DNA of 64,000 nt from the NCBI GenBank assembly GCA_017609285.1, contig JAFCEE010000001.1, positions 18,475-82,474 of the forward strand. The letters are read 5' to 3'. The stretch's first letter is position 1. Every line of letters begins with the position of its first letter. Source of the stretch: Candidatus Pacearchaeota archaeon. GTDB lineage: Archaea > Nanobdellota > Nanobdellia > Pacearchaeales > GW2011-AR1. The position numbers and the translations under genes are program-made. The notes beneath the pieces were generated by a model. The model had not been told where the DNA came from and made no database searches. It saw nothing but the letters and a program-made list of their open reading frames with translations. Below, piece after piece: positions 11,277 to 32,220 of this stretch.

Positions 11277-11806
11277 TTTAATTCTTGTCTGGCTTTTTCT
11301 AGTTTATCTTTGACTAAAGATTTAACTTTTTCTGACAGTTTTGTATACGACCTTTCTAGTTTTGCTAGAACCTCTTTCTTATTTTTATATACATTTCTAA
11401 ATAAACCATCAATATCATCAAAATGGGCTATAGCATCTGCGTCTGCTAAAATTTGAGCTTCTTTTGTCTTTCTTTTTCTATTTTGACTTCCTCTGTGTGA
11501 GAGAATGCATTGTTTAATTTGTTCTATTTTTTCTTCAGGGTAATTTAACTTTGTTAGCAATTCTTCTGCAATTTTTGAGCTAGAAATATGATGATTTTTA
11601 TAATCTCCCCTTATGCTTCCTATATCATGTAACCATGCTGAAATTTCTGCTATTTCCTTATCTGCATTTTCTTTTTCAGCTAATTGAATGGCATATTTTA
11701 CAACAGGAATAAAATGTTTTTCGTAAGACTCTTTATAATGAGCTTCTGGTTTTTCAAATTCTTCTTTTACAAATTCCTTAACTTTTTCTATTATTTCTTT
11801 GCTCAT
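11273..11806 (-). CDS. HD-domain phosphohydrolase
   Basis: 177 aa. H...HD motif (SAWLHDIGS), downstream conserved His/Asp (ILSHRG, ADADAIAHFDD). 4-nt overlaps with both neighbouring genes. Confidence 0.7.
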   Translation of the reverse strand: MSKEIIEKVKEFVKEEFEKPEAHYKESYEKHFIPVVKYAIQLAEKENADKEIAEISAWLHDIGSIRGDYKNHHISSSKIAEELLTKLNYPEEKIEQIKQCILSHRGSQNRKRKTKEAQILADADAIAHFDDIDGLFRNVYKNKKEVLAKLERSYTKLSEKVKSLVKDKLEKARQELK

Positions 11807-13038
11807 TTCTTAAATCTTGACTTCCTTACTGTGTAATTTACAGGATTTTTAATTTTCTCGCAAAGAGGGTCTGGCTCGCATACTCCAATGTCTTTATAAT
11901 AGGTTTTGTCGCAATTTGGAGGCAAAACTTTTTTTTGCTTTTTATGCCATGTTATCTGGCTTTGAATATAACCCTGTCTTAAAGGTTTTTCATTTTTTTT
12001 GTTCCATTCTTTTATTCTGTTTTCAATTTCATCAAAATTTAAACCTAAAGACTTGAAATAGTTAAGCAAAATAAATAAAGCTCTTTTTTTACCATCTTTT
12101 AAACCTTTCAAGATATTTGATATGCAAGGAGGCATAATTATTTTACTTTTATCTATTTTGATTTCTTCATATACTCTTTTCTTATCTGGTTCTTTTTTCT
12201 TTTCTCTTGATTCATACCAATCTAAGGCTGAGATGAGTAACTCGCGAGCTTCTTCTTTCTCTGCCTCAGGATAAAAGTTTTTTATTTTAACTCTTAAAGG
12301 GTCAGCTAATTTAGGCTGGAAATTTTCTATTTCTTCCTCATCAAGAACTATACTGGCTAGACAGGTTTTTTCATGTAAAGAATAGGGTGCACGAAAAAGA
12401 TGTCTGGATGAGACAAGTATAATGTCAGGTGCAACCTCCTTAGGAGCTTCAAAGTCTTTAATATAATTTTTCCTTTCGCCAGATAAAGCAGTTATTTCCT
12501 CAATTAGTTTTGATTTTATCATTTCTGTCAAATAGATAGAGATAATTCTAGGCCATTCAGGAAACATATCTTTTGTTTTTTCTTCCGTTAGAGAAGAAGG
12601 AAAGGCTTTCCATGGTACTATAATATGGAATCCTTTTCCTCCACTGAACTTCGCTCCGAAATTTTTAATGCCATGAAATTTTAAAGCCTCAATAATTAAA
12701 GAGCAAGCTATCTTGCTATAATCAAGATATTTTGAATCAATGTCTATCAATAAATCCCAGCCATCTCTCAGGTTGTTTAAATCTTCTTCTTTTAAATCTG
12801 TAGAAAGTTCAAGGGGATTAGACCATATTTCTTCTGAACAGTGGAAAGAAGTAGCTCCTTTTTTTACTTGTTGTGCGATGTCAGAAGGGTATTGTAAAGT
12901 ATCTGGCCTTTTACCAAAGTTTTCTATATAACGCGGTATGGTCTCTCTCTTTTGACAAAATTTAAAAATAGCTTCTTGCACATCTTTTCTAGAGTAATAT
13001 GTCCTTGCTATTTTTTTTACCCTCTTTTCCTTCTCCAT
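11803..13038 (-). CDS. priS: DNA primase, catalytic small subunit PriS fused to a PriL-like Fe-S C-terminal domain
   Basis: 411 aa. AEP motifs: LLIDIDSKY (DxD), FSGGKGFHIIV (SGxxGxH), RHLFRAPYSLH (R..PxSxH). C-terminal about 100 aa carries four Cys (C..C..C..C) like the PriL CTD. The compact PriS-PriL fusion is known from Nanoarchaeum-type DPANN archaea. Confidence 0.75.
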   Translation of the reverse strand: MEKEKRVKKIARTYYSRKDVQEAIFKFCQKRETIPRYIENFGKRPDTLQYPSDIAQQVKKGATSFHCSEEIWSNPLELSTDLKEEDLNNLRDGWDLLIDIDSKYLDYSKIACSLIIEALKFHGIKNFGAKFSGGKGFHIIVPWKAFPSSLTEEKTKDMFPEWPRIISIYLTEMIKSKLIEEITALSGERKNYIKDFEAPKEVAPDIILVSSRHLFRAPYSLHEKTCLASIVLDEEEIENFQPKLADPLRVKIKNFYPEAEKEEARELLISALDWYESREKKKEPDKKRVYEEIKIDKSKIIMPPCISNILKGLKDGKKRALFILLNYFKSLGLNFDEIENRIKEWNKKNEKPLRQGYIQSQITWHKKQKKVLPPNCDKTYYKDIGVCEPDPLCEKIKNPVNYTVRKSRFKK

Positions 13039-13943: not shown

Positions 13944-14129
13944 ATGAATATCCATAAAAAGAGGATTTTGAATTTTATTAAAAGGAAGAAAGTTGTTACT
14001 AGCTCTGAAGTAGCTAAGCATTTAAAAATTTCTTGGAATACTGCTGAAAAATATTTGTTAGAGTTGATTATAGATGGAAAAGTGGATAAAATTAAGAAGG
14101 AGAGGGTTAATTTGTGGATGTTAAAATGA
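13944..14129 (+). CDS. small winged-helix DNA-binding protein (putative regulator of the downstream pilin/adhesin locus)
   Basis: 61 aa: RILNFIKRKKVVTSSEVAKHLKISWNTAEKYLLELIIDGKV looks like a wHTH fold. ATGA overlap with the next gene. Confidence 0.5.
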   Translation: MNIHKKRILNFIKRKKVVTSSEVAKHLKISWNTAEKYLLELIIDGKVDKIKKERVNLWMLK

Positions 14130-14893
14130 AAAGAAAAGGCCAAGTAACTGTTTTTATTATAGTGGCAGTAATGATAGTAGCGGCTATTGTTCTTTTTTTT
14201 CTTTTAAGGGGAAGGCAGGTAATAGAGATTTTTAAACCAACAATGTTAGAACCTCAAGGATATATAGAAAAATGCGTAAGAGATGCTACAAGCGAGGCTA
14301 TATCTATAATGTTGCCCCAGGGAGGTTATATAACTCCTACAAACTACAAACTTTATGAGAATAATAAAGTAGCTTATTTATGTTATAATGAAAATTATTA
14401 TGAATCTTGTATAAATCAGGAGCCAGTTTATATTAAACATTTAGAAAGTGAAATTAAAAAATATATTTCTCCTAAGGTAGCTGATTGTGTTTATAGTTTA
14501 TCTGAGGAATTAAAAGATAGGGGCTATGTTGTTAATTATGATGATGCTGATATTGATGTTGATGTAGTCCCTGGAAAAGTTAAAGTTGAGGTTAATAATG
14601 ACTTTGAGATGAGCAAAAATGAAGAACATAAAAAATATGATAGTTTTAAAGTTTTAAAAGTTTCTCCTTTATTTGAATTAGCTAATGTTGCTAAAGAAAT
14701 TGTGAATCAGGAAGCAAAATATTGTAATTTTGAATATGTTGGTTTTATGTTGTTTTATCCTAGATATGATATTGATAAGAAAAGTGTTGGGGCTGGAGAT
14801 ACTGCTTCAAAAATTTATATTATTGGAGATAGAATTACTAATAAAAAACTTTACATAGCTGTAAGAAGTTGTGCAATTCCACCAGGATTTTAA
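14126..14893 (+). CDS. class-III signal peptide (type IV pilin-like) protein, locus copy 1
   Basis: N-terminus MKRKGQ|VTVFIIVAVMIVAAIVLFFLL fits the archaeal prepilin peptidase (PibD/FlaK) site [KR]G[QA] followed by a hydrophobic stretch. 255 aa. The ORF track starts 12 nt earlier at 14114. Confidence 0.55.
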   Translation: MKRKGQVTVFIIVAVMIVAAIVLFFLLRGRQVIEIFKPTMLEPQGYIEKCVRDATSEAISIMLPQGGYITPTNYKLYENNKVAYLCYNENYYESCINQEPVYIKHLESEIKKYISPKVADCVYSLSEELKDRGYVVNYDDADIDVDVVPGKVKVEVNNDFEMSKNEEHKKYDSFKVLKVSPLFELANVAKEIVNQEAKYCNFEYVGFMLFYPRYDIDKKSVGAGDTASKIYIIGDRITNKKLYIAVRSCAIPPGF

Positions 14894-14894
14894 A

Positions 14895-17800
14895 ATGAAA
14901 AAAGGAAAAATACTAAGCAAAAAAGAAGGGATAAGTTATTTAGAAATTTTAATCTTAATTATCTATACTTTTGCTTTTTCATATATTGTTTATCAGCCAA
15001 TGAAAAGTGTTTCTGCTCAAGAAAGTGATATAGTTTTATGGACTTGTAAAGAAACTAAAGATGAGTATGGAAGCAAGAAATGCCAGGAATATTTAAGTTC
15101 TGAGTGTAATGAGAAATGCAAGAGTGATTGTTTTCCTGGAACTCGTGATGAGTTTTCTGAATGTCAATTAGGATGTTGTATTGATTCTATTGGCAAATGT
15201 ATGAGCAAGGTTCCAAAAGCTGAATGTATAGATAAGGGAGGGAAATGGGAAAATGATGCAAATTGTAATCCTGGAAAAATTCCTCAATGTAAATTAGGTT
15301 GTTGTGTTTTAAATAATAATGTTAAGCCTTTAGTTACTGAAAAAGAATGTAGGTATTATACTTCTGAAGCCGGAATTAATCTTGATTCTGGTTTTGATTT
15401 TAGGCAGGGAATGAATGAGCCAGAATGTCTTGCACTTGCTTTAACTCAAGCTAAAGGTGCTTGTGTTATTGGGGAAAGTTGTAGATTTGTTAGTGAACAA
15501 GAGTGTTATTCATTAACTAATAGTTTAGCTAATTTTCATAAAGATTGGTTATGTACTCATCCTGAATTAAATAATAGTTGTAACATGACTGAAGAAACAA
15601 CTTGTGTAGATGGGAGAGATGGTGTCTATTTTGTAGATTCTTGTGGCAATATTGCTAATATTTATGATGCAAGTAAAGTAAATGATGTTAATTATTGGAA
15701 AGAAATTATTCCTGTTTCTGAATCTTGTGGTAGTAATGATGAAAAGGGCAATGCTAATTCTAAAACATGTGGTAATTGCAATAGGTTTTTAGGAAGTTCA
15801 TGTAGTCTTGCTTCAGAAACAAGTCCAGAATATGGAAATTATATTTGTAAACCCTTAGATTGTCCTAATGCTCCTGATACTAAAGGAACCAAAGATAGGA
15901 AAAATGGAGAAAGTTGGTGTGTTTATGAGTCAGTTATTGGAGAAGGTAGAGATGTTGTAGGAAGTAGACATTATAGATATTCTTGTGTGGAAGGAGAAGT
16001 TAAAATAGAGCCCTGTGCTGATTTTAGAAATGAGATTTGTGTTGAATCTGAAGTTGGAATTGCCGAGGGAGGAAGTGAGACTTTTTCTACTGCAAGTTGT
16101 AGATTAAATAGATGGCAGGAATGTTTGAATTATAATAATGCTGAGGGAAATACAAGAAAAGAGAAAACTGAGAATATGAAAGCTGCCTGTTCTAAAAATG
16201 AAGATTGTTTTGTTAAGGAAATAAAAATTGATTCAAAATTTAGTTTTAGTGTTTGCGTTCCTAATTATCCTCCTGGTTTTGATTTATCTGGAGAAAGCAA
16301 TGTGGGTAGTGACAAGGTAGCTGAGGAAATTTGCAATATGGCTGATAATAAGTGTACTGTAGTTTATGTTAAAGATTGGAAAGGTAGTTGGGATTGTAAA
16401 GTTAATTGTAATTGTGAGAAACCTGTTTTTACTAATCAAATGAATGAGTTTTGTTCAAGTTTAGGAGATTGTGGAGGTTATGTTAATGTTGAAGGAGAAT
16501 TTACTGATGAGGGTTATGAAGTTAAAGGTAAGGCTCCTAAAAAACTTTCAAGCAAGATTTTAAATGAAATTTTAAGTTATTCTAGTCCAGATAATAATCA
16601 GGCTGCTGAGCCCGGAGATATGTCTAAATATTATGGAAATTTAAGTATTTTGTCTAAAGGTGTTGGAAATGTTGATTATGATAATAAGGCTGATTTGGGG
16701 TGGGTTGGTTATGTGGCTGGTGCTGCTGGAACTGTTTATGCTGTTGCAGCAGCTTATGTTTTTATCGAAGGAGTAGATATTTCGCTAGGAGCATTTTTAG
16801 AGGAAGCTCCCTATGCTTTTGGAGACCTTTTTGGTTCTGCAGCACCAATTATGCGGGCATTTGCCAGAGTAGCAATTGGAGCAGCAATTGGAGCAGTAGT
16901 AGGACAATTAGTAGGAAAGGCAATTGGAGCTGAAGGAGAAGGAGCAGCTGCTATAGCTTATGCAGGAGCTGTGGGTGGGATATTTATTGGAATAGCTTGG
17001 GAAAGTGCTAGACTTACTTGGGAATTTGGACTTATCGGAGTTATTATTTTTGTAGTAGTATTACTCTGGACATGGATTACTGGATGGGGAGATGTTAGGG
17101 AAAGAGTAGTAAGTTTTAATTGTGAACCATGGCAGCCACCAGTTGGAGGAAGTGATTGTGAAAAATGCAATAAAGATGAGCAAGGATGTAGTAAGTATAA
17201 ATGTGAAAGTTTAGGAACAGCTTGTAGATTTTTAAATGAAGGGACAACAGAAGAAACATGCATAGCAAGTGAAAATGATAAAACTCCCCCAGAAATAAGC
17301 CAGTGGAATGAGATTTTAAGTGATGGATATAAGTATGAAAAAACAAGTGATGGGATAAAAATAAGGCAAAATAATGGAGAATGTATACCGGAGTTTAGCC
17401 AGGTAAATTTTGGGTTAATAACTAATGAAAGAGCTCAATGCAAATATGAGTTAGAAGCAAGTGCAAATTATGATTTAATGGAAAATTATTTTGGAGAAAG
17501 CAATCTTTACTTGATAAATCATTCAATGAGTTTAAGCATGCCTTCAGTAGATTCAATAGTTAATCAGTATAATGTAACAAAGGAATTTGTAGAAGAAAAA
17601 TATGGGGATTTTAAGCTTTATGTAAGATGTAGAGATGACTGGAATAATTTTAATATAAAAGAATATGTAATTGATTTATGTGTAAAGCCAGGACCAGACA
17701 TCACCCCCCCTATAATACAAAAAATAGTTCCTGAAACTGAAAGTTATCTTGCTTATAATGAAACTGAAAAAAATATAAAAGTTTATACTAATGAACCATC

Positions 17801-18584
17801 TTCTTGTAAATATTCTTCTCAGGATAAAGAATACGAAGCAATGGAAAATTCTATGAGTTGTAATATAAAGCTACAAGATCAAGAACAATATGGATGGCCT
17901 TGTTCAGTAACATTAACTAATCTAACAAAACAAGAAAATAAAATTTTTATAAGATGTAAAGATAAACCTTGGTTAGAAGAAAATAATGAAACAAGAAAAG
18001 CAAACTCAGAAAGTTATGAATATAATTTAATAGCAAGTAAGAATAAGTTGGAAATAATCTCAATAACACCAAATAAAACTCTTGAATTTGGAGACGAACC
18101 AGTTTCAATAGAACTTAAAGCACAAACTTCTGGGGGTGCAGAACAAGGAAAATCTGAATGTTATTTTAGTTTTTTAGGAGAAGAAGGTTCTTATATTTTA
18201 TTTAAAAATACTTTTTCATCTAGTCATAGCCAGTTATTTAATCAAATGTTAAGAGGAACTCATAAAATTTATGTGAAATGTGAAGATATTGCGGGGAATG
18301 TTGCTGAAGATTTTACTAGATTTAAGTTAAAAATAGACACTACTCCGCCAAGAATTGTGAGGGCTTATAATTTTGGTCAGCTTAAAATTATCACTAACGA
18401 GGATTCTGAATGTGTATATAGTCATGAAAATTGTAATTTTGTTTGGGAAAACGCAACTGAAATGTCAGGAATTCAAAAAATACATGAAACTTCTTGGAAA
18501 CAGGGAAAAACTTATTATGTAAAGTGTAAAGATTTGTGGGATAATAAGCCGGGAGGCTGTTCTATAATAATTAAAGCTGTTTGA
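14895..18584 (+). CDS. giant Cys-rich multi-TM surface protein (putative adhesin)
   Basis: About 1229 aa from the first ATG (track ORF starts at GTG 14871). N-terminal signal anchor; Cys-rich ectodomain (about 540 aa) with repeated C-x-LGCC motifs; Gly/Ala-rich cluster of 3-4 predicted TM helices (aa about 610-700); C-terminal about 520 aa of repeated beta-rich domains ending ...YYVKCKD. The N-terminal half is paralogous to ORF 19411..21045 and the C-terminal half to ORF 21076..23871. Confidence 0.6.
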   Translation: MKKGKILSKKEGISYLEILILIIYTFAFSYIVYQPMKSVSAQESDIVLWTCKETKDEYGSKKCQEYLSSECNEKCKSDCFPGTRDEFSECQLGCCIDSIGKCMSKVPKAECIDKGGKWENDANCNPGKIPQCKLGCCVLNNNVKPLVTEKECRYYTSEAGINLDSGFDFRQGMNEPECLALALTQAKGACVIGESCRFVSEQECYSLTNSLANFHKDWLCTHPELNNSCNMTEETTCVDGRDGVYFVDSCGNIANIYDASKVNDVNYWKEIIPVSESCGSNDEKGNANSKTCGNCNRFLGSSCSLASETSPEYGNYICKPLDCPNAPDTKGTKDRKNGESWCVYESVIGEGRDVVGSRHYRYSCVEGEVKIEPCADFRNEICVESEVGIAEGGSETFSTASCRLNRWQECLNYNNAEGNTRKEKTENMKAACSKNEDCFVKEIKIDSKFSFSVCVPNYPPGFDLSGESNVGSDKVAEEICNMADNKCTVVYVKDWKGSWDCKVNCNCEKPVFTNQMNEFCSSLGDCGGYVNVEGEFTDEGYEVKGKAPKKLSSKILNEILSYSSPDNNQAAEPGDMSKYYGNLSILSKGVGNVDYDNKADLGWVGYVAGAAGTVYAVAAAYVFIEGVDISLGAFLEEAPYAFGDLFGSAAPIMRAFARVAIGAAIGAVVGQLVGKAIGAEGEGAAAIAYAGAVGGIFIGIAWESARLTWEFGLIGVIIFVVVLLWTWITGWGDVRERVVSFNCEPWQPPVGGSDCEKCNKDEQGCSKYKCESLGTACRFLNEGTTEETCIASENDKTPPEISQWNEILSDGYKYEKTSDGIKIRQNNGECIPEFSQVNFGLITNERAQCKYELEASANYDLMENYFGESNLYLINHSMSLSMPSVDSIVNQYNVTKEFVEEKYGDFKLYVRCRDDWNNFNIKEYVIDLCVKPGPDITPPIIQKIVPETESYLAYNETEKNIKVYTNEPSSCKYSSQDKEYEAMENSMSCNIKLQDQEQYGWPCSVTLTNLTKQENKIFIRCKDKPWLEENNETRKANSESYEYNLIASKNKLEIISITPNKTLEFGDEPVSIELKAQTSGGAEQGKSECYFSFLGEEGSYILFKNTFSSSHSQLFNQMLRGTHKIYVKCEDIAGNVAEDFTRFKLKIDTTPPRIVRAYNFGQLKIITNEDSECVYSHENCNFVWENATEMSGIQKIHETSWKQGKTYYVKCKDLWDNKPGGCSIIIKAV

Positions 18585-18632
18585 TAATAAGGAAAATTTA
18601 TAAATAAGCTTGTCTTTGGAAAAATAAGGAAA

Positions 18633-19409
18633 ATGAATAGCAAAAGAGGACAATTGACTTTATTTATTATTGTAGCTATTGTAATTGTTGCTGTACTGCT
18701 TGTTTTGTTTTACCCTAGACTAAAAAAAATAGTAGTTCCGGGCAGCCCAAGTGTACAATTACAAGATTGTATAAATAGTAAGTTAGATGAGGCAGTAGAG
18801 TTAGTAAGTAAGAGGGGGGGCAGTATAGAGCCTGTGAATAACATAATGTATGGAGGTGAGAAGGTAGAGTATTTATGTTATACTAACCAATACTATCAAA
18901 CTTGTGTGATGCAACAACCTCTTTTGAGACAACATGTGGAAAGAGAGATCTTGGATTATATAAAGCCAGAAGCTTTATCCTGTATAAATAACTTAAAACA
19001 AAATTTAAGGAAAAAAGGGTGGCAGGTTTCTCAAGACAGAGAAGATATTTCTATTAGTATTGTTCCAAATAAGATTGAAATTACAGTTTCTGGTTTTTCT
19101 GCTGTTAAGGAGGATATTGGAGAAAGATATGATAAATTTGTTGTTGAAAAGAAAAGTCAACTTTATAATTTAATTATGTTAGCTACCTCTATTTTGAATT
19201 GGGAAGCTCGTTATGGTGATTCTGACATAAAAACTTACATGTTGTATTATCCAAATATGAAAGTTGAAAAATACAAACAAGAAGATGGTTCAAAGATTTA
19301 TACTCTAACTTATACACCAACTAAAGAAAAATTTGTATTTGCTTCAAGAAGTCTAAGTTGGCCTGCAGGATATGGTTTAGGCCAGACACATAAATCAATA
19401 ACAGTTTAA
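18633..19409 (+). CDS. class-III signal peptide (type IV pilin-like) protein, locus copy 2
   Basis: 258 aa. MNSKRGQ|LTLFIIVAIVIVAVLLVLF; paralog of 14126..14893 (shared ...GG.I.P.N...Y...KV.YLCY...YY..C... block). Confidence 0.55.
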   Translation: MNSKRGQLTLFIIVAIVIVAVLLVLFYPRLKKIVVPGSPSVQLQDCINSKLDEAVELVSKRGGSIEPVNNIMYGGEKVEYLCYTNQYYQTCVMQQPLLRQHVEREILDYIKPEALSCINNLKQNLRKKGWQVSQDREDISISIVPNKIEITVSGFSAVKEDIGERYDKFVVEKKSQLYNLIMLATSILNWEARYGDSDIKTYMLYYPNMKVEKYKQEDGSKIYTLTYTPTKEKFVFASRSLSWPAGYGLGQTHKSITV

Positions 19410-19410
19410 A

Positions 19411-21045
19411 ATGGAGAATAATATGATAATTAAAAAGATAAAAATAAGTTCAGTTATTTTAATGCTATTTATAAGTATTTTTGTTTTTTCATTAAATTTT
19501 TCAGTAAAGGCACAACAGGTAAAGTTTTGTTGTGAGAGAACTACTTATGGAGCGTGGTGTCAAAATGCTCCTGAAGAAGAATGTGATGAAGGTTATAATT
19601 GCGGAATAGATGAAAAAGGAAATCTATTAAAATGTAGAAAAACTCCTACTTCTTGCGAGGCTACTTCTTATTGTAGATTAGGATGTTGTTATGACAGTAG
19701 TGAAGGAATATGTATGGAAAAAACTCCCCAAAAAGTTTGTCAAGATTCAGGTGGGACTTGGAGTGATGATGCTGAATGTAATATTGCTCAATGCCAGCTT
19801 GGCTGTTGTATTTTAGGAACCCAAGCAGCTTTTGTAACCTTGACTAGATGTAAAAAATTAAGTAGTTTTTATGGCTTGATTACTAATTTTAGAAGAGATA
19901 TAGGAAATGAATTAAGTTGTATATCTCTTGCTTCATTAAGTGACCAAGGTGCTTGTGTTTATGAAGTTGATTTTGTTAAAACTTGTAAATTTACTTCTAG
20001 GCAAGAATGCAATAGTATTAAGCAAGGAATGAATATTGGAAATAAAACTGAATTAGGGGGCGGAAGGGTTACTAGTAATGTTGAGTTTTATAAAGATTTA
20101 TTATGCACTGCTGAAGAACTTGGAACTAGTTGTAGTATGACAAAACAAACTACTTGTATTGAAGGAAGAGATGAAGTTTATTTTGTTGATTCTTGTGGCA
20201 ATATAGCTAATATTTATGATGCTTCTAAAATTGATGATAAAGCTTATTGGAGGAAAAAAATAAGTAAAGTAGAAAGTTGTGGAAGTGGTTCTTCTAATAT
20301 TAATTCAAGAACTTGCGGTAATTGTAATTATTTTGAGGGTAGTATTTGTGGCGAAGGAAATGCTAAATATGGAGATTATATTTGTAAGGATTTAAATTGC
20401 CATGCTTCTGACACTAGTGATGGCAAATTACACAAACATGGAGAATCTTGGTGCAGTACTGATAAATATCCTGATTCTGTAGGTAGTAGATATTTTAGAC
20501 ATATTTGTATGAATGGTGAGGAAATTATTGAGCCATGCGCAGATTTTAGGCAGGAAATTTGTATTCAAGATTATATTGAATCTGGTGGTGTTAAGTTTTC
20601 TCAAGCTGGATGTAGAGTTAATAGGTGGCAGGATTGTTATAGTCAGACTGAAAAAAAAGATTGTGAAAATAAAGACAAAAGAGATTGTAAGTGGATTTTA
20701 AAAACTGATAAGGTTGCAGAAAGAGAAACTGAAGAAGGAAAATATCAGCCAATTAAAATTGGGTGTGTTCCTGAACATTCTCCAGGTTTGAAATTCTGGG
20801 AAGAAGGAGAAGCTCAAGGAACTTGTTCTCTTGCAAATTCTCAATGCGTGGTTGAATTTGTAAAAGAAGGTTTTTTAAAGGGGGGTGGTAAAAAATGTGA
20901 GGATAATTGTGAATGTTTAGAAGATTCTTGGAAACAAGAACAATTAGAAAAATGTGAACAAATTGGAGATTGTGGGGCTAAAACTAATTGGATTGGAAAT
21001 AAAGGAAATAAAGAAGGTTATGATATTAAAATAACTGAACAATGA
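19411..21045 (+). CDS. Cys-rich secreted/membrane-anchored protein (N-terminal-half paralog of the giant protein)
   Basis: 544 aa. N-terminal signal anchor; strong amino-acid and nucleotide similarity to aa about 50-560 of 14895..18584 (e.g. TTCIEGRDEVYFVDSCGNIANIYDAS vs TTCVDGRDGVYFVDSCGNIANIYDAS). Confidence 0.6.
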   Translation: MENNMIIKKIKISSVILMLFISIFVFSLNFSVKAQQVKFCCERTTYGAWCQNAPEEECDEGYNCGIDEKGNLLKCRKTPTSCEATSYCRLGCCYDSSEGICMEKTPQKVCQDSGGTWSDDAECNIAQCQLGCCILGTQAAFVTLTRCKKLSSFYGLITNFRRDIGNELSCISLASLSDQGACVYEVDFVKTCKFTSRQECNSIKQGMNIGNKTELGGGRVTSNVEFYKDLLCTAEELGTSCSMTKQTTCIEGRDEVYFVDSCGNIANIYDASKIDDKAYWRKKISKVESCGSGSSNINSRTCGNCNYFEGSICGEGNAKYGDYICKDLNCHASDTSDGKLHKHGESWCSTDKYPDSVGSRYFRHICMNGEEIIEPCADFRQEICIQDYIESGGVKFSQAGCRVNRWQDCYSQTEKKDCENKDKRDCKWILKTDKVAERETEEGKYQPIKIGCVPEHSPGLKFWEEGEAQGTCSLANSQCVVEFVKEGFLKGGGKKCEDNCECLEDSWKQEQLEKCEQIGDCGAKTNWIGNKGNKEGYDIKITEQ

Positions 21046-21075
21046 AAAGATTAAAATGAAAAAAGAAGAAGAAAA

Positions 21076-23871
21076 ATGATGAAAAATAAAAAAGCAAGAC
21101 AAACAATAGCAGGATTTGAAATTATAACTTTAGTTCTTGCTATAATTTCGTTTGTTGTTATTATTTCTGGTGGGGTGAGTGGGGAGAATGGTGGGGGAGG
21201 TGGGGGTGGGGATGGTAATTCAGATTTTGTAGAGGGTAAGATTGGTATTGAAAGGGGGGGGGCTAAAATATTTTTTCCAAATGATGAAAACCTCCCAGTT
21301 TACTCATCTATTGATGGTGGTAGAACATGGTCTGAAAGTTACTGGTATAACAGAAATAATATGAAAGAGTTCGCCTTACAAGATGATAAAATTGAAAGAA
21401 CACTTTTAGGGAGGCGACCATCAGTAGTAAGATTAAGGGAAGTGCGGGGTGCAAAAACTATGAGAGAAGGAGGAGGTGTTAGTGGAGCAAGTAGCTCTCC
21501 CAATCCAGCAAGAGGAATAAATTTTCAACAACCAGAACCTATTGGGGGGTTTAAAGTTACTGAAACAATGGCAGGAAGATTAGAAGAGATTGGTGTAGAA
21601 TTGGATGCGGGTGCAGAAATAGAAAAAATAGTTCCAGGAGATAAGGGTTTAATCCTAAAATTGAAGAGTGGAGAATCTGTTGAAATAGATGGAGAAAAAA
21701 TAAAAGAATTTGGGAGGATAACTGGAACAAGTAATAGTATAACAAATGCTTATCGTAATGCTCTTTATGAAGGTTTGAAGGGAGGTAAGGGGACTGTTGG
21801 TGAATTAATAGGAGAAGGAACAAGAGATATTGGTGGTGTATGGGAAGTTAGTTCTGAATCAATTAAGGGTACTGATATGGCAAAAGTTACTTTTAAAAAT
21901 AAAATAACAGGGGACGAGTTTACAAAAGAACTATCTACAAAAATGAGATTATCACAAATAAGTAGTATTGAGATAACAGGGCAAGCAGCTCCAAAGCTTC
22001 CATTATTAGGAGAAATACCTGTAATGGGAGGACTTGGTTATATTTTAGAAGGTCTTGCATGGGGTTTAGGAGTTGCTGGTCTTATACAATTAATAGGCGG
22101 ATTAGCGGGAATGGAAAGTAAAGCAATAAATTCAGCTAGTATTGCTGCAATAATTGGTGGCGGAGTAAAAGGTGCTGTAAGTGCAATTATAGGGAAAGGT
22201 GGTTTAATAACAAAAGATCTCGGACTCGCAATGAAAACAAAAGGGTTGTGGTGGAAATATACTCCTCATGCAGCTGGAATCGTAGCAGCAATAATCGTCT
22301 TTGGTTTAATGGATCAAGGTGAAAGCAAGAAAGTTGTGAATTTCAAATGTAATCCATGGGAAGCACCAACAGGAGGAAGTGATTGTGAAAAATGCAATGA
22401 TGGACTTTATCCATGTACAGAATATAGGTGCAAAAGTTTAGGACAAGCTTGTGAGTTGTTAAATCCTGGAACAGGAGAAGAAGCTTGTGTATGGGTAAAT
22501 CCAAAAGATGTAAACAGTCCAATAATAGAAACATGGGATAAAGTTTTAACAAAAGACCATAAGTATGACCCAAATACAGCAATAAGGCCTCCTGACAGGG
22601 GAGTAAAAATTTTGTATGAAAAGTCAAATGATGGTTGTATAAAAGCATTTACTCCATTAAGCTTTGGAATAACCTTAAATGAACCAGCACAATGTAAAAT
22701 TGATTATAACAGGACAGCAAAATATGAAGATATGAACTATTATTTTGGGGGTAGCAATATTTACAAATATAATCATACGCAAGTTATGAGGTTGCCTGGT
22801 CCAGATGCTGTAAATGCAGAAGCTCCTGAACTTAAAAATGATGGAAATTATAATTTATATGTAAGATGTCAAGATGCAAATGGAAATTCAAATGATGACT
22901 TATTTGTATTTAGTTTTTGTGTAGAAAGAGGCCCTGATGTAACCCCGCCTAAGATTGAAGGAACAAGCATAAGTAATGGGATGCCAATCCAATATGGTTT
23001 GAATCAGACAAAACTTGAAGTCTATGTAAATGAGCCTTCTGAATGTAAGTGGAGTAAAACAGACCAAGATTATGAAGCAATGGAACATAGTTTTGATTGT
23101 GCAAGCCATGTTTATGAGATGAATAACTTAATGTTATATAAGTGTGAAGGAATTTTAACAGATTTAGAAGATAGAAAAGACAATGTCTTTTACTTTAGAT
23201 GTAAAGATCAGCCTTGGTTAACTGGAGAAAAACAGGTTGATAGAAATGTAAATGTTGAGAGTTATAAATTTATATTGAAGGGAACACAACCCCTCAATAT
23301 AGTAAATGTAAAGCCAAATGAAACTATAACTGGCTACTCAACTCTAGCTACTGTAAATTTAGAAGTAGAAACCGAAGCTGGCTACAATCTCGGTGATAGC
23401 TGGTGCAGTTATTATTGCATATCTGTAGGAGAAGAAGCTTCTGTTAGCGAAGATAGATGGATACAAATGTTTGAAACAGGAACTAATATACATAAACAGA
23501 GACTTGACTTGCCTGCTGACGAATATATTTGTGAGTTTCAGTGTGTAGATTTAGGAGGAAATGCTGCTTACTCAAACACAACTTTCAAAGTTGAAATAGA
23601 TGAAGAAGCTCCTAAAGTAGTTAGAGTTTACCAAGATTCTGGTAAACTAAAGATAATTACAGATGAAAAATCTATCTGCTCTTATTCTACTAACAAAGAA
23701 AAAGAGTGTAGTTTTGACATAGATGAAGGAACTAATATGCCTTATGCTAATAGCAAGGAACATTTTGCTGACTGGGAAGAAGGTAAAACTTATTATGTAA
23801 AATGTAAAGATAGTAATGAGAGACAGCCTTTGCCTAATGAGTGTAGTATTGTGGTAAGAGCTGAGAGTTAA
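21076..23871 (+). CDS. multi-TM surface protein (C-terminal-half paralog of the giant protein)
   Basis: 931 aa. N-terminal TM; Gly-rich stretch (GGVSGENGGGGGGGDG); Gly/Ala-rich TM cluster; then FKCNPWEAPTGGSDCEKCN..., homologous to FNCEPWQPPVGGSDCEKCN... of the 1237-aa protein, ending ...YYVKCKDSNERQPLPNECSIVVRAES. Confidence 0.6.
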   Translation: MMKNKKARQTIAGFEIITLVLAIISFVVIISGGVSGENGGGGGGGDGNSDFVEGKIGIERGGAKIFFPNDENLPVYSSIDGGRTWSESYWYNRNNMKEFALQDDKIERTLLGRRPSVVRLREVRGAKTMREGGGVSGASSSPNPARGINFQQPEPIGGFKVTETMAGRLEEIGVELDAGAEIEKIVPGDKGLILKLKSGESVEIDGEKIKEFGRITGTSNSITNAYRNALYEGLKGGKGTVGELIGEGTRDIGGVWEVSSESIKGTDMAKVTFKNKITGDEFTKELSTKMRLSQISSIEITGQAAPKLPLLGEIPVMGGLGYILEGLAWGLGVAGLIQLIGGLAGMESKAINSASIAAIIGGGVKGAVSAIIGKGGLITKDLGLAMKTKGLWWKYTPHAAGIVAAIIVFGLMDQGESKKVVNFKCNPWEAPTGGSDCEKCNDGLYPCTEYRCKSLGQACELLNPGTGEEACVWVNPKDVNSPIIETWDKVLTKDHKYDPNTAIRPPDRGVKILYEKSNDGCIKAFTPLSFGITLNEPAQCKIDYNRTAKYEDMNYYFGGSNIYKYNHTQVMRLPGPDAVNAEAPELKNDGNYNLYVRCQDANGNSNDDLFVFSFCVERGPDVTPPKIEGTSISNGMPIQYGLNQTKLEVYVNEPSECKWSKTDQDYEAMEHSFDCASHVYEMNNLMLYKCEGILTDLEDRKDNVFYFRCKDQPWLTGEKQVDRNVNVESYKFILKGTQPLNIVNVKPNETITGYSTLATVNLEVETEAGYNLGDSWCSYYCISVGEEASVSEDRWIQMFETGTNIHKQRLDLPADEYICEFQCVDLGGNAAYSNTTFKVEIDEEAPKVVRVYQDSGKLKIITDEKSICSYSTNKEKECSFDIDEGTNMPYANSKEHFADWEEGKTYYVKCKDSNERQPLPNECSIVVRAES

Positions 23872-23881
23872 GTCGTAGGAT

Positions 23882-24184
23882 TTAACTTAATTTTTTAATT
23901 AATTCTGCTTTTATCAACTTCTTTTTTTCTTTTGATACTGAAAATAAAAATTTTTTAATCATTTTTTCAGAAATAGTAAAAATATAATTTAATTTAATAA
24001 TGCTTTCTTTTAATGCTCCTTCTTTTTTCGTTAAAGGAATTCCTTTCATTTTGATATTGCTTGTTATTCCTGCAACTACAACATTCCCTTGTTCTTCAAA
24101 TAAGACTAAAGCAGGTCTTGTTTTAATTTCAAAAGTATCTGTAAATTGTACTTGAGCTAGAATAATATCTCCAAAATTATACAT
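23882..24184 (-). CDS. MazF/PemK-family toxin (type II toxin-antitoxin)
   Basis: 100 aa. GDIILAQVQFTD...KTRPALVL aligns with E. coli MazF GDLIWVDFDPTKGSEQAGHRPAVVL; the C-terminal LIKAELIKKL resembles LQLIKAKINVLI. Confidence 0.65.
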   Translation of the reverse strand: MYNFGDIILAQVQFTDTFEIKTRPALVLFEEQGNVVVAGITSNIKMKGIPLTKKEGALKESIIKLNYIFTISEKMIKKFLFSVSKEKKKLIKAELIKKLS

Positions 24185-24421
24185 TTATACCTCTTCCCAA
24201 AATTCGTCTTGTTTATTATCCCAAATTTCCCTCATTTTTGGTTGCTGTATTTTATGTAAAAATTCATCATACTGATTTCTCTGTTTCATTTTTATAAAAA
24301 TCGTTGCCATTTTTTCTAGTAATTCATTGTAAGTTTGTCTAGGATATTCCTTGCTTTTCTTAAGCATTTCAATTGTCTTTTTATCTAATAATATTGTTGT
24401 CTTTTCTGTCATATATATCAC
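24185..24421 (-). CDS. putative antitoxin partner of the MazF-like toxin
   Basis: 78 aa ORF immediately upstream of the toxin on the same strand with a 0-nt gap, which is typical antitoxin-toxin order. Confidence 0.4.
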   Translation of the reverse strand: MIYMTEKTTILLDKKTIEMLKKSKEYPRQTYNELLEKMATIFIKMKQRNQYDEFLHKIQQPKMREIWDNKQDEFWEEV

Positions 24422-24472
24422 CTATACATATATTATATATTAACTATATAAACTTTTCGATTAAAATTCTGC

Positions 24473-24584
24473 TGAACATTTTACAGAATGGGTAGAAGGA
24501 CAGACTTATTATGTAAAATGCAAAGATTCTAATGAGAGACAGCCTGCTCTTTTTCTTGTTCAGTTATAGTGGGAGCTGAGTCGA
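24473..24584 (+). repeat. degenerate copy of the 3' end of the giant surface-protein gene (gene fragment B)
   Basis: gaacattttacagaatgggtagaaggacagacttattatgtaaaatgcaaagattctaatgagagacagcct matches 23757..23830 (the end of 21076..23871) with substitutions, then diverges or frameshifts (…KCKDSNERQPALFLVQL*). Confidence 0.55.
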
Positions 24585-24636
24585 CTTAAACAGCTTAAAA
24601 AATTTATAATGGATTCTGAGACAAGAGAGTATGTAA

Positions 24637-24924
24637 ATGAAAAGAGTAGACAAAAGATTAGATGAAAGACTAGGGGGACTTTATGATGGGATGACTGGAT
24701 TAGAAAGCAGAATGGATGGTCTATATGAAGGGCTAAATGCAAAGATGGATGGGCTTAATATAAAGATGGATGCTGTTTTGAATGCTATTTCTGTTTTTTC
24801 TAGAGCTTATGAAAAGTCTCAAGAGCTATATACTAATGTTTTAAAGGATTTGGGCTATATTAAAGAAAGACTTGATAGTAGGATAGGATTTGCAAGAAAA
24901 GATGAAGAATCAGAGAAGTCTTAG
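24637..24924 (+). CDS. hypothetical coiled-coil protein with MDGL repeats
   Basis: 95 aa ORF; repeated (R/K)MDGL(Y/N) heptad-like units. Confidence 0.3.
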   Translation: MKRVDKRLDERLGGLYDGMTGLESRMDGLYEGLNAKMDGLNIKMDAVLNAISVFSRAYEKSQELYTNVLKDLGYIKERLDSRIGFARKDEESEKS

Positions 24925-25068
24925 AGTTTTTATTTTAAAGTGTGAGGAGTGCAAGATAGCCTTTACCTAATTCTTGTTCTATAATTGTGAGGGTTGAGAG
25001 CTAATAGCATTAAAGAAACAAAATATGAAAATTATTGACAATTAAAAGAAAATTATAGCCATTTTATT

Positions 25069-25836
25069 CTATTTCTGTAGAAAATAAAAAAATGGTTTGT
25101 AAAGAAGTGCAGGTTCACTTACTTTAAAATTTTTTATTCCAGTCTCTCCTATCTCAAGAGAAAACCAACCAACAAATGACTTAACATATTCATCAAATCT
25201 TGATCTGTATTCAGGTTTAACTTCTCTTCTTAATGCTCTAAGAAATCCTTTATTTACTCTTAATTCTCTTGCAGTTCCATAAACTACCAAATCATATCCA
25301 TCTAAAGAGCGAGAAGGGATGCTGAAAGGTTCATTTGAATCTCCTCTTGTCAATAAACTTATTAAATTTTTTACTTTGCCTTCTTCTGCCAATCCTCTAT
25401 CTGCAGAAATTGTTGTTTTATAACCTCCACCAATACCTAAAACTTTTCCAATTGTACGTTTATAATCTACATTTATCGTTTTCTTTCTTTTCAGGAAACT
25501 TAGAAAGCCTTTTTTTCTTTCTCTTAGCATTATATCCATTTGAATAAAATAATAGAAAAATTACATTGTATATGTCGGCAACATTCTTCTTTCTAAACCA
25601 CTACCCTCATTCAAATATCTTAAACTGTTTGGTAATGCTCTAGCTTGTCGATTATCATGAGTTACATATATAGAGGAAGTGACTCTCCTACCTAGAGCAT
25701 TCATGTGGGCATTAGCTATAGGTACAATCACATCTTCTAAACCAGGATCAACAGCAAATTTTGTTTTATATCCTGCTACTATAACCCCTGCTCTCGTTGA
25801 AACCCATCCTCTTAATTTCCTTCCTAATCTTGGCAT
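25069..25836 (-). pseudogene. hypothetical protein with internal duplication, interrupted by an in-frame TAA
   Basis: ORFs 25561..25836 and 25069..25539 are in the same frame on the minus strand (25836-25539=297). They are joined by TAA plus 21 stop-free nt (…LPTYTM*FFYYFIQMDIML…). Internal repeat AGYKTKFAVDPGL / GGGYKTTISADRGL. Locally elevated GC. Confidence 0.35.
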
Positions 25837-25932
25837 ACAATAAACATTCCATCTTTATTTAAATATCTTATGTTTATATAGTATATACTATAAAATAGTT
25901 ACTTTTATAAATCTAAGAAAACATAAAATAAT

Positions 25933-26202
25933 ATGTTTGGGTATGTTAGAAGGTTGTATCAAGGTATAAAGGAAAAGTATAATTCATATAGACGGGAATA
26001 TAAAAGAAGTCCGATTGTTTCTTTTTTTAGGTCTATTTTTGATTACATTCTTGGACGACCAAAACCATTTGTTCTACCTCCAGAGCAGCAAGAGAAATTT
26101 GAAAGTGGGTTAGATGAAAAATTAAGGTTAAACCATGATATTTTTTATGGCCCTGGAAAAATTGTTTTAAGAAAAAAAAGTCTTGTTGATAGACTTGATT
26201 AA
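25933..26202 (+). CDS. hypothetical protein
   Basis: 89 aa ORF in the island; no motif recognised. Confidence 0.25.
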   Translation: MFGYVRRLYQGIKEKYNSYRREYKRSPIVSFFRSIFDYILGRPKPFVLPPEQQEKFESGLDEKLRLNHDIFYGPGKIVLRKKSLVDRLD

Positions 26203-26270
26203 TTTAGATTTTGATTTGTATGGCTTACAACATTTTTTAACTAAAATTTAGGGTCTATATCTCTTTTAAC

Positions 26271-26360
26271 GAAGGTAAATCTGACTATCAAGTGTAAAGA
26301 TAGTAATGAGAAACAGCCTTTGCCTAATGAGTGTAGTATTATTATTAGGGCTGAATCCTG
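26271..26360 (+). repeat. second copy of the 3' end of the giant surface-protein gene (gene fragment C)
   Basis: gaaggtaaatctgactatcaagtgtaaagatagtaatgagaaacagcctttgcctaatgagtgtagtattattattagggctgaatcctga is about 90% identical to 23782..23871 (…KCKDSNEKQPLPNECSIIIRAES*). Confidence 0.6.
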
Positions 26361-26519
26361 ATTCTAAACTTGAAACATTCAAGAGTGAAGTTGGAGAATG
26401 AAAATAATAATAACAAATTTTATATTGTGGAGAAGTCATGAGAAGAAAGATGCCGGCTTGTTATGTAACTTATGATAAAAAACAGAAGAAGTTAAAAAAG
26501 TTGAAGTCTAATTAAGAAA

Positions 26520-27329: not shown

Positions 27330-27359
27330 GTTTTTATATCGAGGAAAATTAATAAGTAA

Positions 27360-28898: not shown

Positions 28899-29432
28899 AT
28901 GAGAAAAAGAGGAAAAAAGAGGAATGGCAAAAGAGGGCAACTTAGAATATCTTTTGGCATGCTTTTTTCTATAATCTTGATTATAGCTTTTATTGCTGTA
29001 GCTGTATATGCCATAATTATGTTCCTTAACATAAAAAAATGTGCAGACACTGGCATGTTCAAACAGGATTTGCAGGAAGAAATAAATAGGGCGTGGACTT
29101 CTGATAGTTCATCTGAAATTTTTTCTGGTAATTTGCCATCTAGTTTAGATTATGTTTGTTTTGTAGATGTTTCTGAGGAAGGTAGAGGAGAACATAAAGA
29201 GTATTACGACAAACTGAAGAAGTATGGTTATTCTCCTCAGATAAATATGTTTTTCTGGCCTTTGAAAAATACTTGTGAGGGGCAGAGAGGTTTTGAAATA
29301 AAGCATATAGATATAAAAAAAATTACAGCAGAAGAAAATCCTTATTGTATAAAGAGTATTAGGGGCAAGGTTGAAGTAAAAATTGAAAAAGATTTTTATG
29401 ATGCCTTAGTTAAGATAAGCAAGATAAGTTAA
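28899..29432 (+). CDS. class-III signal peptide (type IV pilin-like) protein
   Basis: 177 aa. ...NGKRGQ|LRISFGMLFSIILIIAFIAVAVYAII. Confidence 0.5.
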   Translation: MRKRGKKRNGKRGQLRISFGMLFSIILIIAFIAVAVYAIIMFLNIKKCADTGMFKQDLQEEINRAWTSDSSSEIFSGNLPSSLDYVCFVDVSEEGRGEHKEYYDKLKKYGYSPQINMFFWPLKNTCEGQRGFEIKHIDIKKITAEENPYCIKSIRGKVEVKIEKDFYDALVKISKIS

Positions 29433-32170: not shown

Positions 32171-32220
32171 ATGCCATCATGTGAGGAAAAACCAGATTAA
32201 TGATTGAAAGGAGGTCAAAA

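Follow-up and report, generated by a model that had tools for sequence, protein, structure and literature searches.

A conserved locus of pilin-like proteins and giant, putatively surface-exposed proteins beside primase and PCNA in Pacearchaeota and Woesearchaeota

Results

Gene content of the locus

The stretch of DNA analyzed here, referred to as the window, is 64 kb long. It contains a string of six genes on the plus strand, in which a small wHTH gene is followed by two paralogous sets, A1 with B1 and A2 with B2N and B2C (Table 1). All six were found where the preliminary description of this DNA had placed them. The wHTH product is matched by the Pfam families HTH_24 (E 1.9e-5) and FaeA (E 3.5e-6). 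From wHTH to B2C the junctions are operon-like, with an ATGA overlap followed by spacers of 1, 48, 1 and 30 nt. As the genes abut or overlap, A1 and B1 on the one hand and A2, B2N and B2C on the other look co-transcribed.

In the window, a 5-kb insert lies between B2C and a further group of genes: P1-P4, all four pilin-like, then a convergent HTH gene and a gene for an S-layer-like protein, which in this copy shows no clear C-terminal TM anchor. In relatives, P1 directly follows B2C; of 34 loci, 21 have it on the downstream side of B2C, at a distance of at most 154 nt in 15. The position of the convergent HTH gene is conserved in related loci, and its ortholog in one of them (L081) carries PF25212 HVO_A0114. 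The S-layer-like gene is syntenic in 18 loci as well as in L081. Judging from this gene order, the A/B module makes up the 5' half of a conserved locus of larger extent, which also comprises P1-P4, the convergent HTH gene and the S-layer-like gene. The module as initially delimited, from wHTH to B2C, was confirmed; its continuation into P1-P4 and the S-layer-like gene had been missed. The conserved succession B2C-P1-P2-P3-P4-HTH(-)-S-layer links the locus to the cell envelope.

Table 1 Genes of the locus, with positions in the window. A slash in a sequence marks the predicted cleavage site
Gene	Product	Position	Strand	Remarks
wHTH	wHTH protein, 61 aa	13944-14129	+	first in string; stop overlaps A1 start (ATGA)
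A1	255 aa from ATG	14126-14893	+	259 aa if GTG at 14114 is the start
B1	fused giant protein, 1229 aa from ATG	14895-18584	+	1237 aa if GTG at 14871 is the start
A2	A1 paralog, 258 aa	18633-19409	+	BLASTP against A1, E 3e-45
B2N	stand-alone head, 544 aa	19411-21045	+	collinear with B1 1-544
B2C	stand-alone anchor and stalk, 931 aa	21076-23871	+	315-929 collinear with B1 651-1228
P1	pilin-like, 177 aa (…GKRG/QLRISFGMLFSIILI)	28899-29432	+	no Pfam match
P2	pilin-like, 316 aa (MQKKG/FEFSFAWLFAIIVG), 10 Cys	29434-30384	+	no Pfam match
P3	pilin-like, 175 aa (…SKRS/QFKIQQMAFMLL)	30386-30913	+	weak PspB match only, TM-driven
P4	pilin-like, 164 aa (…GKKA/QEEMIGFVLIIVLV)	30915-31409	+	no Pfam match
HTH	convergent HTH protein, 120 aa	31448-31810	-	closes P1-P4 string; divergent from S-layer-like gene
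S-layer-like	S-layer-like protein, 803 aa	32200-34611	+	Pfam S_layer_C, E 2.2e-6

Conservation across related genomes

The gene order primase, PCNA, (wHTH), A1, B1, A2, B2N, B2C is found again in 80 loci of different Pacearchaeota, Woesearchaeota and Nanoarchaeota genomes; the synteny comparison proposed at the outset thus shows a stable arrangement. Both modules are present in 61 of the 62 loci with room for them. An A gene lies immediately 5' of B1 in 68/70 loci, and an A2-type ortholog follows B1 in 59-61 of 62. A wHTH homolog is located upstream of A1 in 29 of 71 loci (~40%) and abuts it in 23. On the evidence of this synteny, the two sets are vertically conserved and the locus sits at a fixed position by PCNA and primase. 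In a one-genome-per-species collection, 524 of 599 pattern-matched stretches encode a relative, and the B profile is matched by 4688 clusters at 50% identity. All named homologs belong to Pacearchaeota, Woesearchaeota or Nanoarchaeota, in agreement with the DPANN source that had been suspected from the DNA.

A proteins and the pilin-like N-termini

In A1, a class-III-type N-terminus (KRKG/QVTVFIIV) leads into an α/β ectodomain that has six cysteines and is disulfide-bonded. The third cysteine pair is missing from A2, and 71 of 72 A2-type sequences show the pattern CCCC--. C200 and C249 of A are never lost singly (0 of 147). The α/β domain is confidently modelled and has no convincing match in the PDB. 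The pilin-like start first noticed in A1 and A2 is a family trait: a [KR][GAS]Q motif plus hydrophobic stretch is found in 76 of 83 members, all 76 with Q at +1, 63 with T at +3 and 72 with F or W at +5. Orthologs of P1-P4 share conserved K-G-(Q) motifs. The globular domains of A and P1-P4 have no homology to known pilins. Among ORFs of at least 300 aa in the window, no match to T2SSE, FlaI, FlaJ or Peptidase_A24 was obtained; the large ORFs thus encode neither an ATPase or platform protein of a type IV pilus nor a prepilin peptidase, and the window likewise showed no gene for EppA or FlaK.

Domain architecture of the B proteins

B1 consists of a signal peptide (1-42), four small cysteine modules (44-229), a cysteine-rich, β-rich core (230-575), a variable linker, Gly/Ala-rich segments (601-734), a Cys knot (734-794) and the Ig-like domains D1-D4 (795-1229). 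Hydropathy resolves the Gly/Ala-rich TM cluster of the preliminary description into four hydrophobic segments. The repeats recognized in the C-terminal ~435 aa are likewise real: hhalign shows four domains to be homologous to one another with a probability of 94-98%. Each contains the C.YS...Y.AME motif internally and not, as had been stated, at its end. The N-terminus had been taken for a signal anchor. It has instead the appearance of a signal peptide that can be cleaved, and a conserved [VA]-x-A/[QE] signal-peptidase site, clearest in B2N, lies ahead of the first cysteines.

In the second set, the same parts are distributed over two proteins. B2N carries a signal peptide (…FSVKA/QQ) and the Cys-rich domain with 47 cysteines, its sole TM segment being 10-28. 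B2C has its own N-terminal TM segment (16-34), a Cys-free variable region (41-310), the Gly/Ala-rich TM cluster (~316-417) and then the Cys knot and four Ig-like domains. Its TM total by hydropathy is even, which would put the stalk inside the cell, although such counts are noisy. In both sets, the B unit has a disulfide-rich head and an Ig-like stalk of four domains, connected through the weakly conserved Gly/Ala-rich TM cluster.

The Ig-like domains of B superpose on solved Ig/FN3 structures as Ig/FN3-like β-sandwiches. The structural and remote-homology comparison that had been suggested thus gives an answer for the stalk; for the head, the structure search returned no fold match. The B model leaves the packing between domains uncertain (pTM 0.53).

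Among B orthologs, the ectodomains are 40-52% identical and keep all cysteines, compared with 28% for the TM cluster and 22% for the linker, so the anchor is not the functional core. The core of the head contains near-invariant or invariant polar motifs besides its cysteines, namely D248-S-C-G-N252, N-G-E339-S-W341, G-S357-R358-H, D376-x-R378, N405 and G-D525-C-G…N531. Cysteines of B are lost only pairwise (C830/C929; C1180/C1222). Such paired loss in A and B points to disulfides and hence to domains that face outward; together with the Ig-like folds, it bears out the earlier view that B is exposed at the surface.

Two ancient paralogous sets and a split second B protein

Pairwise BLASTP alignment shows that B2N and B2C are collinear homologs of the two halves of B1, as had been proposed: B1 1-544 is 38% identical to B2N 1-540 (E 2e-99), and B1 651-1228 is 34% identical to B2C 315-929 (E 7e-98). 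A1 and A2 share 34% identity. The short near-identical stretches quoted from the two copies are present at both levels, VYFVDSCGNIANIYDASK being identical in protein with 48 of 54 bases matching and GGSDCEKCN with 27 of 27. Longer DNA stretches are only 70-76% identical between the copies. The modules had been called tandemly duplicated; a recent local event does not fit, since they are ancient paralogs that each have orthologs in ~60 of 62 related loci.

B2N and B2C share a reading frame and are separated by just 30 nt with two in-frame stops (TGA at 21043, TAA at 21052), as might be expected if the second copy were a pseudogene in decay or an artefact of assembly or frameshift. That explanation is refuted by the comparative data: the best 120 of 1670 B2N homologs all stand alone, at 499-667 aa and 47-69% identity; B2C orthologs (~680-880 aa in most loci) begin with a start and an N-terminal TM segment of their own; the genomes of relatives place the two halves 0-5.8 kb apart, with intervening lipoprotein-like genes or toxin-antitoxin pairs; and fused B2 forms are rare and early-branching in a rough neighbor-joining tree. 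Residues 1-314 of B2C have no counterpart in B1 or in the 80 loci. By these comparisons, the split is the normal state of B2, and the fission is stable, ancient and lineage-wide. The initial interpretation as a genuine fission and not a nonsense mutation holds, as stand-alone B2N and B2C orthologs are under purifying selection in most related genomes.

Searches for known families

No fitting family for A or B was found in Pfam, NCBIfam, the PDB, PHROG or PADLOC, and the impression that they match no recognized, curated family was correct. On the Ig-like domains of B, Big_13 scores 16.6-16.8 bits and Y_Y_Y 13.2 bits, below their Pfam gathering cut-offs of 27 and 26.6. S-layer families such as S_layer_C and S_layer_N match neither A nor B. 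The sole PHROG match, to tape-measure proteins, is weak (E 0.004) and driven by the composition of the Gly/Ala-rich segment; PADLOC gave no match to A or B.

Discussion

Proposed function

The locus probably gives rise to a structure of the envelope or for surface contact. We tentatively favor, with somewhat less than even confidence, a lineage-specific surface assembly of Pacearchaeota/Woesearchaeota-type archaea that is membrane-anchored, lies outside the cytoplasm and would serve in contact or attachment. B would enter the membrane by means of its cleavable signal peptide, with the TM cluster acting as a hairpin-type anchor that leaves head and stalk both facing outward. In the second set, the head B2N would be secreted as a separate soluble protein. 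To remain on the cell, it would then have to bind the B2C stalk, A2 or both, which implies that head and stalk also touch in fused B1. A prepilin-type peptidase is predicted to cut A1, A2 and P1-P4 at the conserved K-[GAS]/Q site; the products may remain in the membrane or form short pilin-like assemblies that hold or present B.

Host attachment by the A/B locus is plausible. Uniformly conserved ectodomains combined with a variable TM cluster and linker are not the pattern of a host-specific adhesin, and a variable host-specific receptor is less likely. The most likely function would be that of a contact or attachment structure projecting at S-layer level, whose conserved ligand could be located on a partner cell, on a substrate or on the cell's own envelope. 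A housekeeping envelope component would account for the uniformly conserved ectodomains and the fixed site by PCNA and primase no less well than an attachment device.

A more far-reaching version of the proposed assembly, rather unlikely in its entirety, treats the whole ~20-kb string [wHTH]-A1-B1-A2-B2N-B2C-P1-P2-P3-P4, next to the S-layer gene, as an undescribed surface machine. Six pilin-like subunits and two giant double-ectodomain proteins with new head and partner folds would define the Pacearchaeota/Woesearchaeota radiation and contact partner cells. If this were true, the machine would mediate the physical contact with partner cells that these uncultured, genome-reduced archaea need.

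In Sulfolobales, SlaB anchors SlaA. By analogy, A, B and P1-P4 could form a housekeeping scaffold that anchors or spaces the S-layer encoded downstream and does not touch other cells. This is improbable on balance. In its favor, the S-layer-like gene is a conserved neighbor whose window copy shows no clear C-terminal TM anchor, the locus is near-universal, vertically inherited and fixed in position, both ectodomains are uniformly conserved, and one of the stalk's Foldseek matches is the HPI S-layer protein of D. radiodurans. However, neither A nor B matches an S-layer family, and two non-redundant paralogous sets with six different pilin-like proteins seem excessive for an anchor. The adjacency could also reflect a frozen gene order, PCNA and primase being just as tightly linked.

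Very improbable is a cell-cell bridge, fusion device or conduit, in which the head enters or fuses the partner membrane or the Gly-zipper TM cluster forms a pore for the uptake of lipids or metabolites. The substances taken up would be those that these reduced genomes cannot make. A signal peptide, a Cys-rich, β-rich ectodomain and several C-proximal TM helices loosely recall viral and archaeal fusogens, GxxxG-rich helices favor oligomerization, and the general opinion that DPANN archaea need partner organisms (PMC8204110) would suit such a device.

The chances are slimmer still for a head that acts as an extracellular enzyme or as a module binding a polymer (glycan, cell wall), presented by the Ig-like stalk and A. 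The polar motifs of the core are typical of catalytic or ligand-binding sites; yet no enzyme family was recognized by sequence and no fold match was found for the head, and the invariant residues might just as well have a structural role or bind Ca2+.

Among uncultured archaea, Pacearchaeota and Woesearchaeota rank with the most widespread. The locus takes up 10-20 kb of their very small genomes, is kept at a fixed position in nearly all related genomes examined and is made up entirely of proteins without annotation. This makes it a concrete target, across the lineage, for structural work, for metaproteomics and for cryo-ET of enrichments. Such work bears on the way in which these cells construct their surface and, possibly, become attached to partners. 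The conserved pair of fused B1 and split B2N plus B2C predicts a head-stalk interaction that is directly testable.

Comparison with known systems

Minor-pilin operons of type IV pili (fimU-pilVWX-pilY1) combine minor pilins with a large non-pilin adhesin, and T2SS has the minor pseudopilins GspH-K. As in fimU-pilVWX-pilY1, a row of small prepilin-type genes (here A1, A2 and P1-P4) accompanies a very large surface or secreted protein (here two giant B proteins). In contrast to those operons, B1 and B2C are polytopic membrane proteins and not soluble tip adhesins, B has no vWA or β-propeller domain, and no ATPase, platform or peptidase gene was found among the large ORFs of the locus or window.

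Tandem Ig/FN3 arrays of cell-adhesion molecules, the D. radiodurans HPI protein (8cka) and the grappling hook GhpA of Aureispira (9flw) resemble the stalk at the fold level only; the B domains differ in having conserved cysteine pairs of their own and a Cys knot ahead of them.

Castelle et al. 2021 (PMC8204110) report a module 98 of 51 families, mostly of unknown function, that is widespread in Pacearchaeota and Woesearchaeota and specific to these two, and predict many DPANN lineage-specific families to be membrane-bound or extracellular. The A, B and P families fit this description. That paper gives no account of the present gene module, its paralogy, its fission or its pilin-like signals.

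The EppA-processed pilins of Methanococcus maripaludis have glutamine at +1 (PMC3875500). Like them (PMC3875500; PMC4858521), A has a short basic leader ending in G/A, Q at +1 and a hydrophobic helix. Unlike them, A has F or W instead of E at +5 and is much larger (~255 aa), with an unrelated α/β domain and a cleavage site that is predicted. As cited in PMC3875500 (refs 33-34), the substrates of the Sulfolobus bindosome are globular, non-filament surface proteins with signal peptides of class III, namely sugar-binding proteins served by a dedicated BasEF ATPase/membrane pair. Sugar-binding proteins and the BasEF pair are both absent from the locus; as a precedent for globular extracellular proteins that are directed to the surface by a class III signal, bindosome substrates may nonetheless be a better analogy for A than filament pilins.

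Paralogous modules and their age

The six open reading frames of the string lie at exactly the coordinates given in the preliminary description, and features of the region are compiled in the table below. The stop codon of the wHTH gene and the start codon of the pilin-like gene A1 overlap in an ATGA. Spacers of 1 nt separate A1 from the fused giant gene B1, and likewise A2 from B2N, the N-terminal half of the split second giant gene. Between B1 and A2 there are 48 nt and between B2N and the C-terminal half, B2C, 30 nt. The proposed collinearity of the two modules is borne out by BLASTP: residues 1-544 of B1 pair with residues 1-540 of B2N (38% identity, E 2e-99), residues 651-1228 with residues 315-929 of B2C (34% identity, E 7e-98), and A1 with A2 (34% identity, E 3e-45). 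B2N and B2C share a reading frame with two stops in between. Residues 1-314 of B2C form a TM helix of its own and a Cys-free, Gly-rich region without counterpart in B1, and no relative of this part was found by BLAST or phmmer across the 80 related archaeal loci compared. The shared peptides quoted earlier are present in both copies, where the DNA is 89-100% identical over 27-54 nt; over longer stretches, the paralogs are 70-76% identical. Near-identity confined to short conserved motifs fits selection on these motifs in an AT-rich genome, and recent gene conversion is not indicated.

Features of the region, in window coordinates
Feature	Position	Strand	Size	Description
Lamin-tail-domain protein	5432-6604	+		candidate surface/membrane protein
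424-aa protein	7193-8467	-	424 aa	no Pfam match
591-aa protein	8504-10279	-	591 aa	no Pfam match
Primase	11803-13038	-	411 aa	matches both DNA primase small-subunit and large-subunit Pfam models
wHTH	13944-14129	+		winged-helix gene
A1	14126-14893	+	255 aa	pilin-like
B1	14895-18584	+	1229 aa	fused giant protein
A2	18633-19409	+	258 aa	pilin-like
B2N	19411-21045	+	544 aa	N-terminal half of second B
B2C	21076-23871	+	931 aa	C-terminal half of second B
Insert	23882-28876			PemK/MazF toxin, DUF7557-like antitoxin candidate, small ORFs, radical SAM, Polβ-type nucleotidyltransferase, amidohydrolase
P1	28899-29432	+	177 aa	pilin-like
P2	29434-30384	+	316 aa	pilin-like
P3	30386-30913	+	175 aa	pilin-like
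P4	30915-31409	+	164 aa	pilin-like
HTH gene	31448-31810	-	120 aa	ortholog with PF25212 HVO_A0114
S-layer-like gene	32200-34611	+	803 aa	Pfam S_layer_C, E 2e-6
T1, T2	34852-36124	+		Cys-containing, N-terminal TM segment; candidate surface/membrane proteins
CARDB/FixG_C Ig-like protein	39206-40774	-	522 aa	candidate surface/membrane protein
tRNA	53235-53366	+	132 nt	Rfam match, 44.6 bits; not reported by ARAGORN

Orthologs of A2, B2N and B2C score better against A2 and B2 of the window than against A1 and B1, so that duplication and fission are both older than the sampled radiation. The split of B2 had been read as genuine rather than as a nonsense mutation. It is indeed a stable state: B2N has stand-alone homologs and the two halves lie 0-5.8 kb apart in relatives, which rules out a pseudogene or an artefact as the cause. 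The few fused B2 genes occupy early branches in a rough neighbour-joining tree of the stalk region, suggesting that an ancestral fused gene underwent fission. The interval between the halves holds 1-3 small genes with a lipobox-like signal (…L[AST]GC…), of lipoprotein type, in many relatives and MNT nucleotidyltransferase/HEPN toxin-antitoxin pairs in others (L020, L028, L036, L038, L039, L042, L043, L045, L047, L066, L068, L069 and others); the junction behaves as an insertion hot spot.

Distribution and conserved gene order

A search with B1 found 430 database relatives (E<=1e-3). Most of the best 120 are 1150-1350 aa long, and wherever a name is given it is 'hypothetical protein', with Pacearchaeota, Nanoarchaeota or an unclassified archaeon as the source. 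The A1 search gave 180 relatives, about 250-290 aa in length, whose locus tags adjoin those of B in named genomes. For B2N, 1670 relatives were found, the best 120 of which are all stand-alone proteins (499-667 aa, 47-69% identity). Among 1.84 billion cluster representatives, a B profile matched 4688 at E<=1e-3, of which 2194 reached E<=1e-30. In a one-genome-per-species collection, a relative is encoded in at least 524 pattern-matched stretches (524/599 among the matches listed).

The synteny comparison suggested in the preliminary description gave a clear norm across the 80 loci: primase (reverse strand), PCNA, an optional wHTH gene (29/71 loci), A1, B1, A2, B2N and B2C. An A gene lies directly 5' of B1 in 68 of 70 loci, and both modules are present in 61 of the 62 loci with enough sequence. 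The sole exception, L064 (scaffold RIFCSPLOWO2_01_FULL_38_24), carries one A+B module despite ample flanking sequence. With a score intermediate between B1 and B2, its B protein falls into the B2 clade of a rough tree; the locus may have lost a module secondarily or may preserve the state before the duplication.

The neighboring primase of the window looks like a fused PriS-PriL. Elsewhere, the primase ORF measures 430-1017 aa and often matches just one half of the window's protein, which suggests insertions or other rearrangements. The 424-aa and 591-aa genes are located upstream of genes for a Cas4-like nuclease, an HD-domain protein and the primase, and genes of the same size occupy the same site in L081. 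The tRNA match farther downstream is probably an intron-containing archaeal tRNA.

Extension of the locus downstream of B2C

In relatives, B2C is followed by four small genes on the same strand, P1-P4, which abut or overlap each other and come directly after B2C in loci such as L002, L025 and L081. P1 is found 3' of B2C in 21 of the 34 loci with room for it, at a distance of <=154 nt in 15 of those 21. P4 is followed by a convergent HTH gene and, across a divergent spacer of 270-530 nt, by an S-layer-like gene; many relatives have this divergently transcribed pair in synteny with the locus. The S-layer-like protein carries a signal peptide; a C-terminal TM segment is not obvious in its sequence. 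In the window, an insert of roughly 5 kb parts B2C from P1, where the gap in relatives is 2-154 nt. None of the 80 related loci has the radical SAM, nucleotidyltransferase or amidohydrolase gene of this insert, which is missing altogether from the close relative L081. T1 and T2 come after the S-layer-like gene not just in the window: at least two further loci (L019, L049) share this arrangement.

All four P families combine several cysteines with a conserved class-III-type N-terminus. No Pfam matches were obtained for P1-P4, and hhalign detected no homology of their globular parts to one another or to A.

Protein anatomy and topology

The N-terminus of A reads [KR][KR][GAS]↓Q-[VI]-T-[IL]-[FW]-I-I-I-A in 76 of 83 family members. 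In EppA-dependent pilins of M. maripaludis, the class III signal ends in glycine with glutamine at +1 (PMC3875500). A shares the +1 glutamine, whereas its +5 residue is F or W instead of E. Conservation of the G/A/S↓Q sites suggests that a prepilin peptidase acts on them. Among the large ORFs of the 64-kb window, no type IV pilus ATPase, platform or peptidase was found.

An AF2 model of B1 residues 30-1229 reached a mean pLDDT of 81.9 (domains mostly 85-95) and a pTM of 0.53. In the signal peptide of B, a [VA]-x-A↓[QE] site is conserved some 8 residues ahead of the first CC (A 58/70, V 42/70 and Q 39/70 at the aligned positions). Four small Cys modules, each a β-hairpin plus helix, follow in B1 44-229; they harbor the C.LGCC motifs, with four recurrences at the DNA level. 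A haem-binding role of the cysteines was dropped, as no CxxCH was seen on reading the B sequences by eye. The β-rich core of the head (230-575) contains the invariant motifs DSCGN, NGESW, GSRH, D.R and GDCG and is followed by a disordered, variable linker, four Gly/Ala-rich hydrophobic segments (601-734), a six-Cys knot (734-794) and the stalk of four mutually homologous β-sandwich domains, D1-D4 (hhalign probability 94-98%). Across 113 orthologs, identity amounts to 40-52% in head core, knot and D1-D4, compared with 28% in the TM cluster and 22% in the linker. Given this poor conservation, the membrane part behaves as a generic anchor, with the conserved function in the extramembrane domains.

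A1-type proteins have six cysteines (71/75) and A2-type proteins four (71/72). C200 and C249 of A are always both kept or both missing, and C50 and C121 are jointly missing in one sequence. In the B stalk, C830/C929 are jointly lost in 2 and C1180/C1222 in 4 of 84 sequences. Such paired patterns point to disulfides; combined with the Ig-like folds and the signal peptide, they assign an extracytoplasmic location to the A domain and to both head and stalk of B. Hydropathy of typical orthologs (signal peptide plus four segments in B1, N-terminal TM plus two in B2C) agrees with this placement, although TM counts are noisy and ambiguous for the window's own B2C. As B2N has no TM segment besides its signal peptide, B2C and/or A2 would have to retain it on the cell, and an interaction of head and stalk is accordingly expected in fused B1 as well.

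Family assignment and possible function

Searches of all six proteins against Pfam and NCBIfam gave nothing above cut-off except for wHTH, and Pfam matches of the 83 A-family members were driven by the TM segment only. PHROGs and PADLOC yielded no fitting phage or defence family, and the PDB no match by sequence, either with single proteins or with profiles. The earlier impression that no known family is involved holds for A, the B head and P1-P4, which fit no curated family, solved structure, phage or defence family; the resemblance of the stalk to Ig domains is confined to the fold. No account of this set of genes, of its paralogy and conserved fission or of its pilin-type signals was found in the searchable literature. 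Castelle et al. 2021 described a Pacearchaeota- and Woesearchaeota-specific module that comprises 51 families, most of them unknown, and reported that the lineage-specific families of DPANN include many with a predicted membrane-bound or extracellular location (PMC8204110).

The locus is established as vertically inherited, lineage-wide and operon-like, with outward-facing, disulfide-bonded products: six pilin-like proteins of five unrelated families and two giant proteins, encoded beside an S-layer-like gene. A surface contact or attachment structure is tentatively proposed as the most likely function, at somewhat less than even confidence for the statement as a whole; an outward-facing surface complex is much more secure than its role in attachment. 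The main rival, considered less likely, is a structural role in the envelope or as an S-layer anchor, which agrees well with the uniformity of conservation and with the fixed position in the genome. With low probability, the products might serve in fusion or as a conduit, or the head might be an enzyme. The locus is large, near-universal in a major uncultured lineage, partly novel in structure and open to direct testing.

The closest analogies include minor-pilin operons with a large adhesin, surface proteins with class III signals (bindosome substrates, EppA-type pilins) and anchor/canopy S-layer pairs; where membership could be judged, the locus departs from them in defining features. It is rated among pilin-associated or Ig-stalked surface protein systems, with a minor but appreciable probability that it encodes a distinct surface machine.
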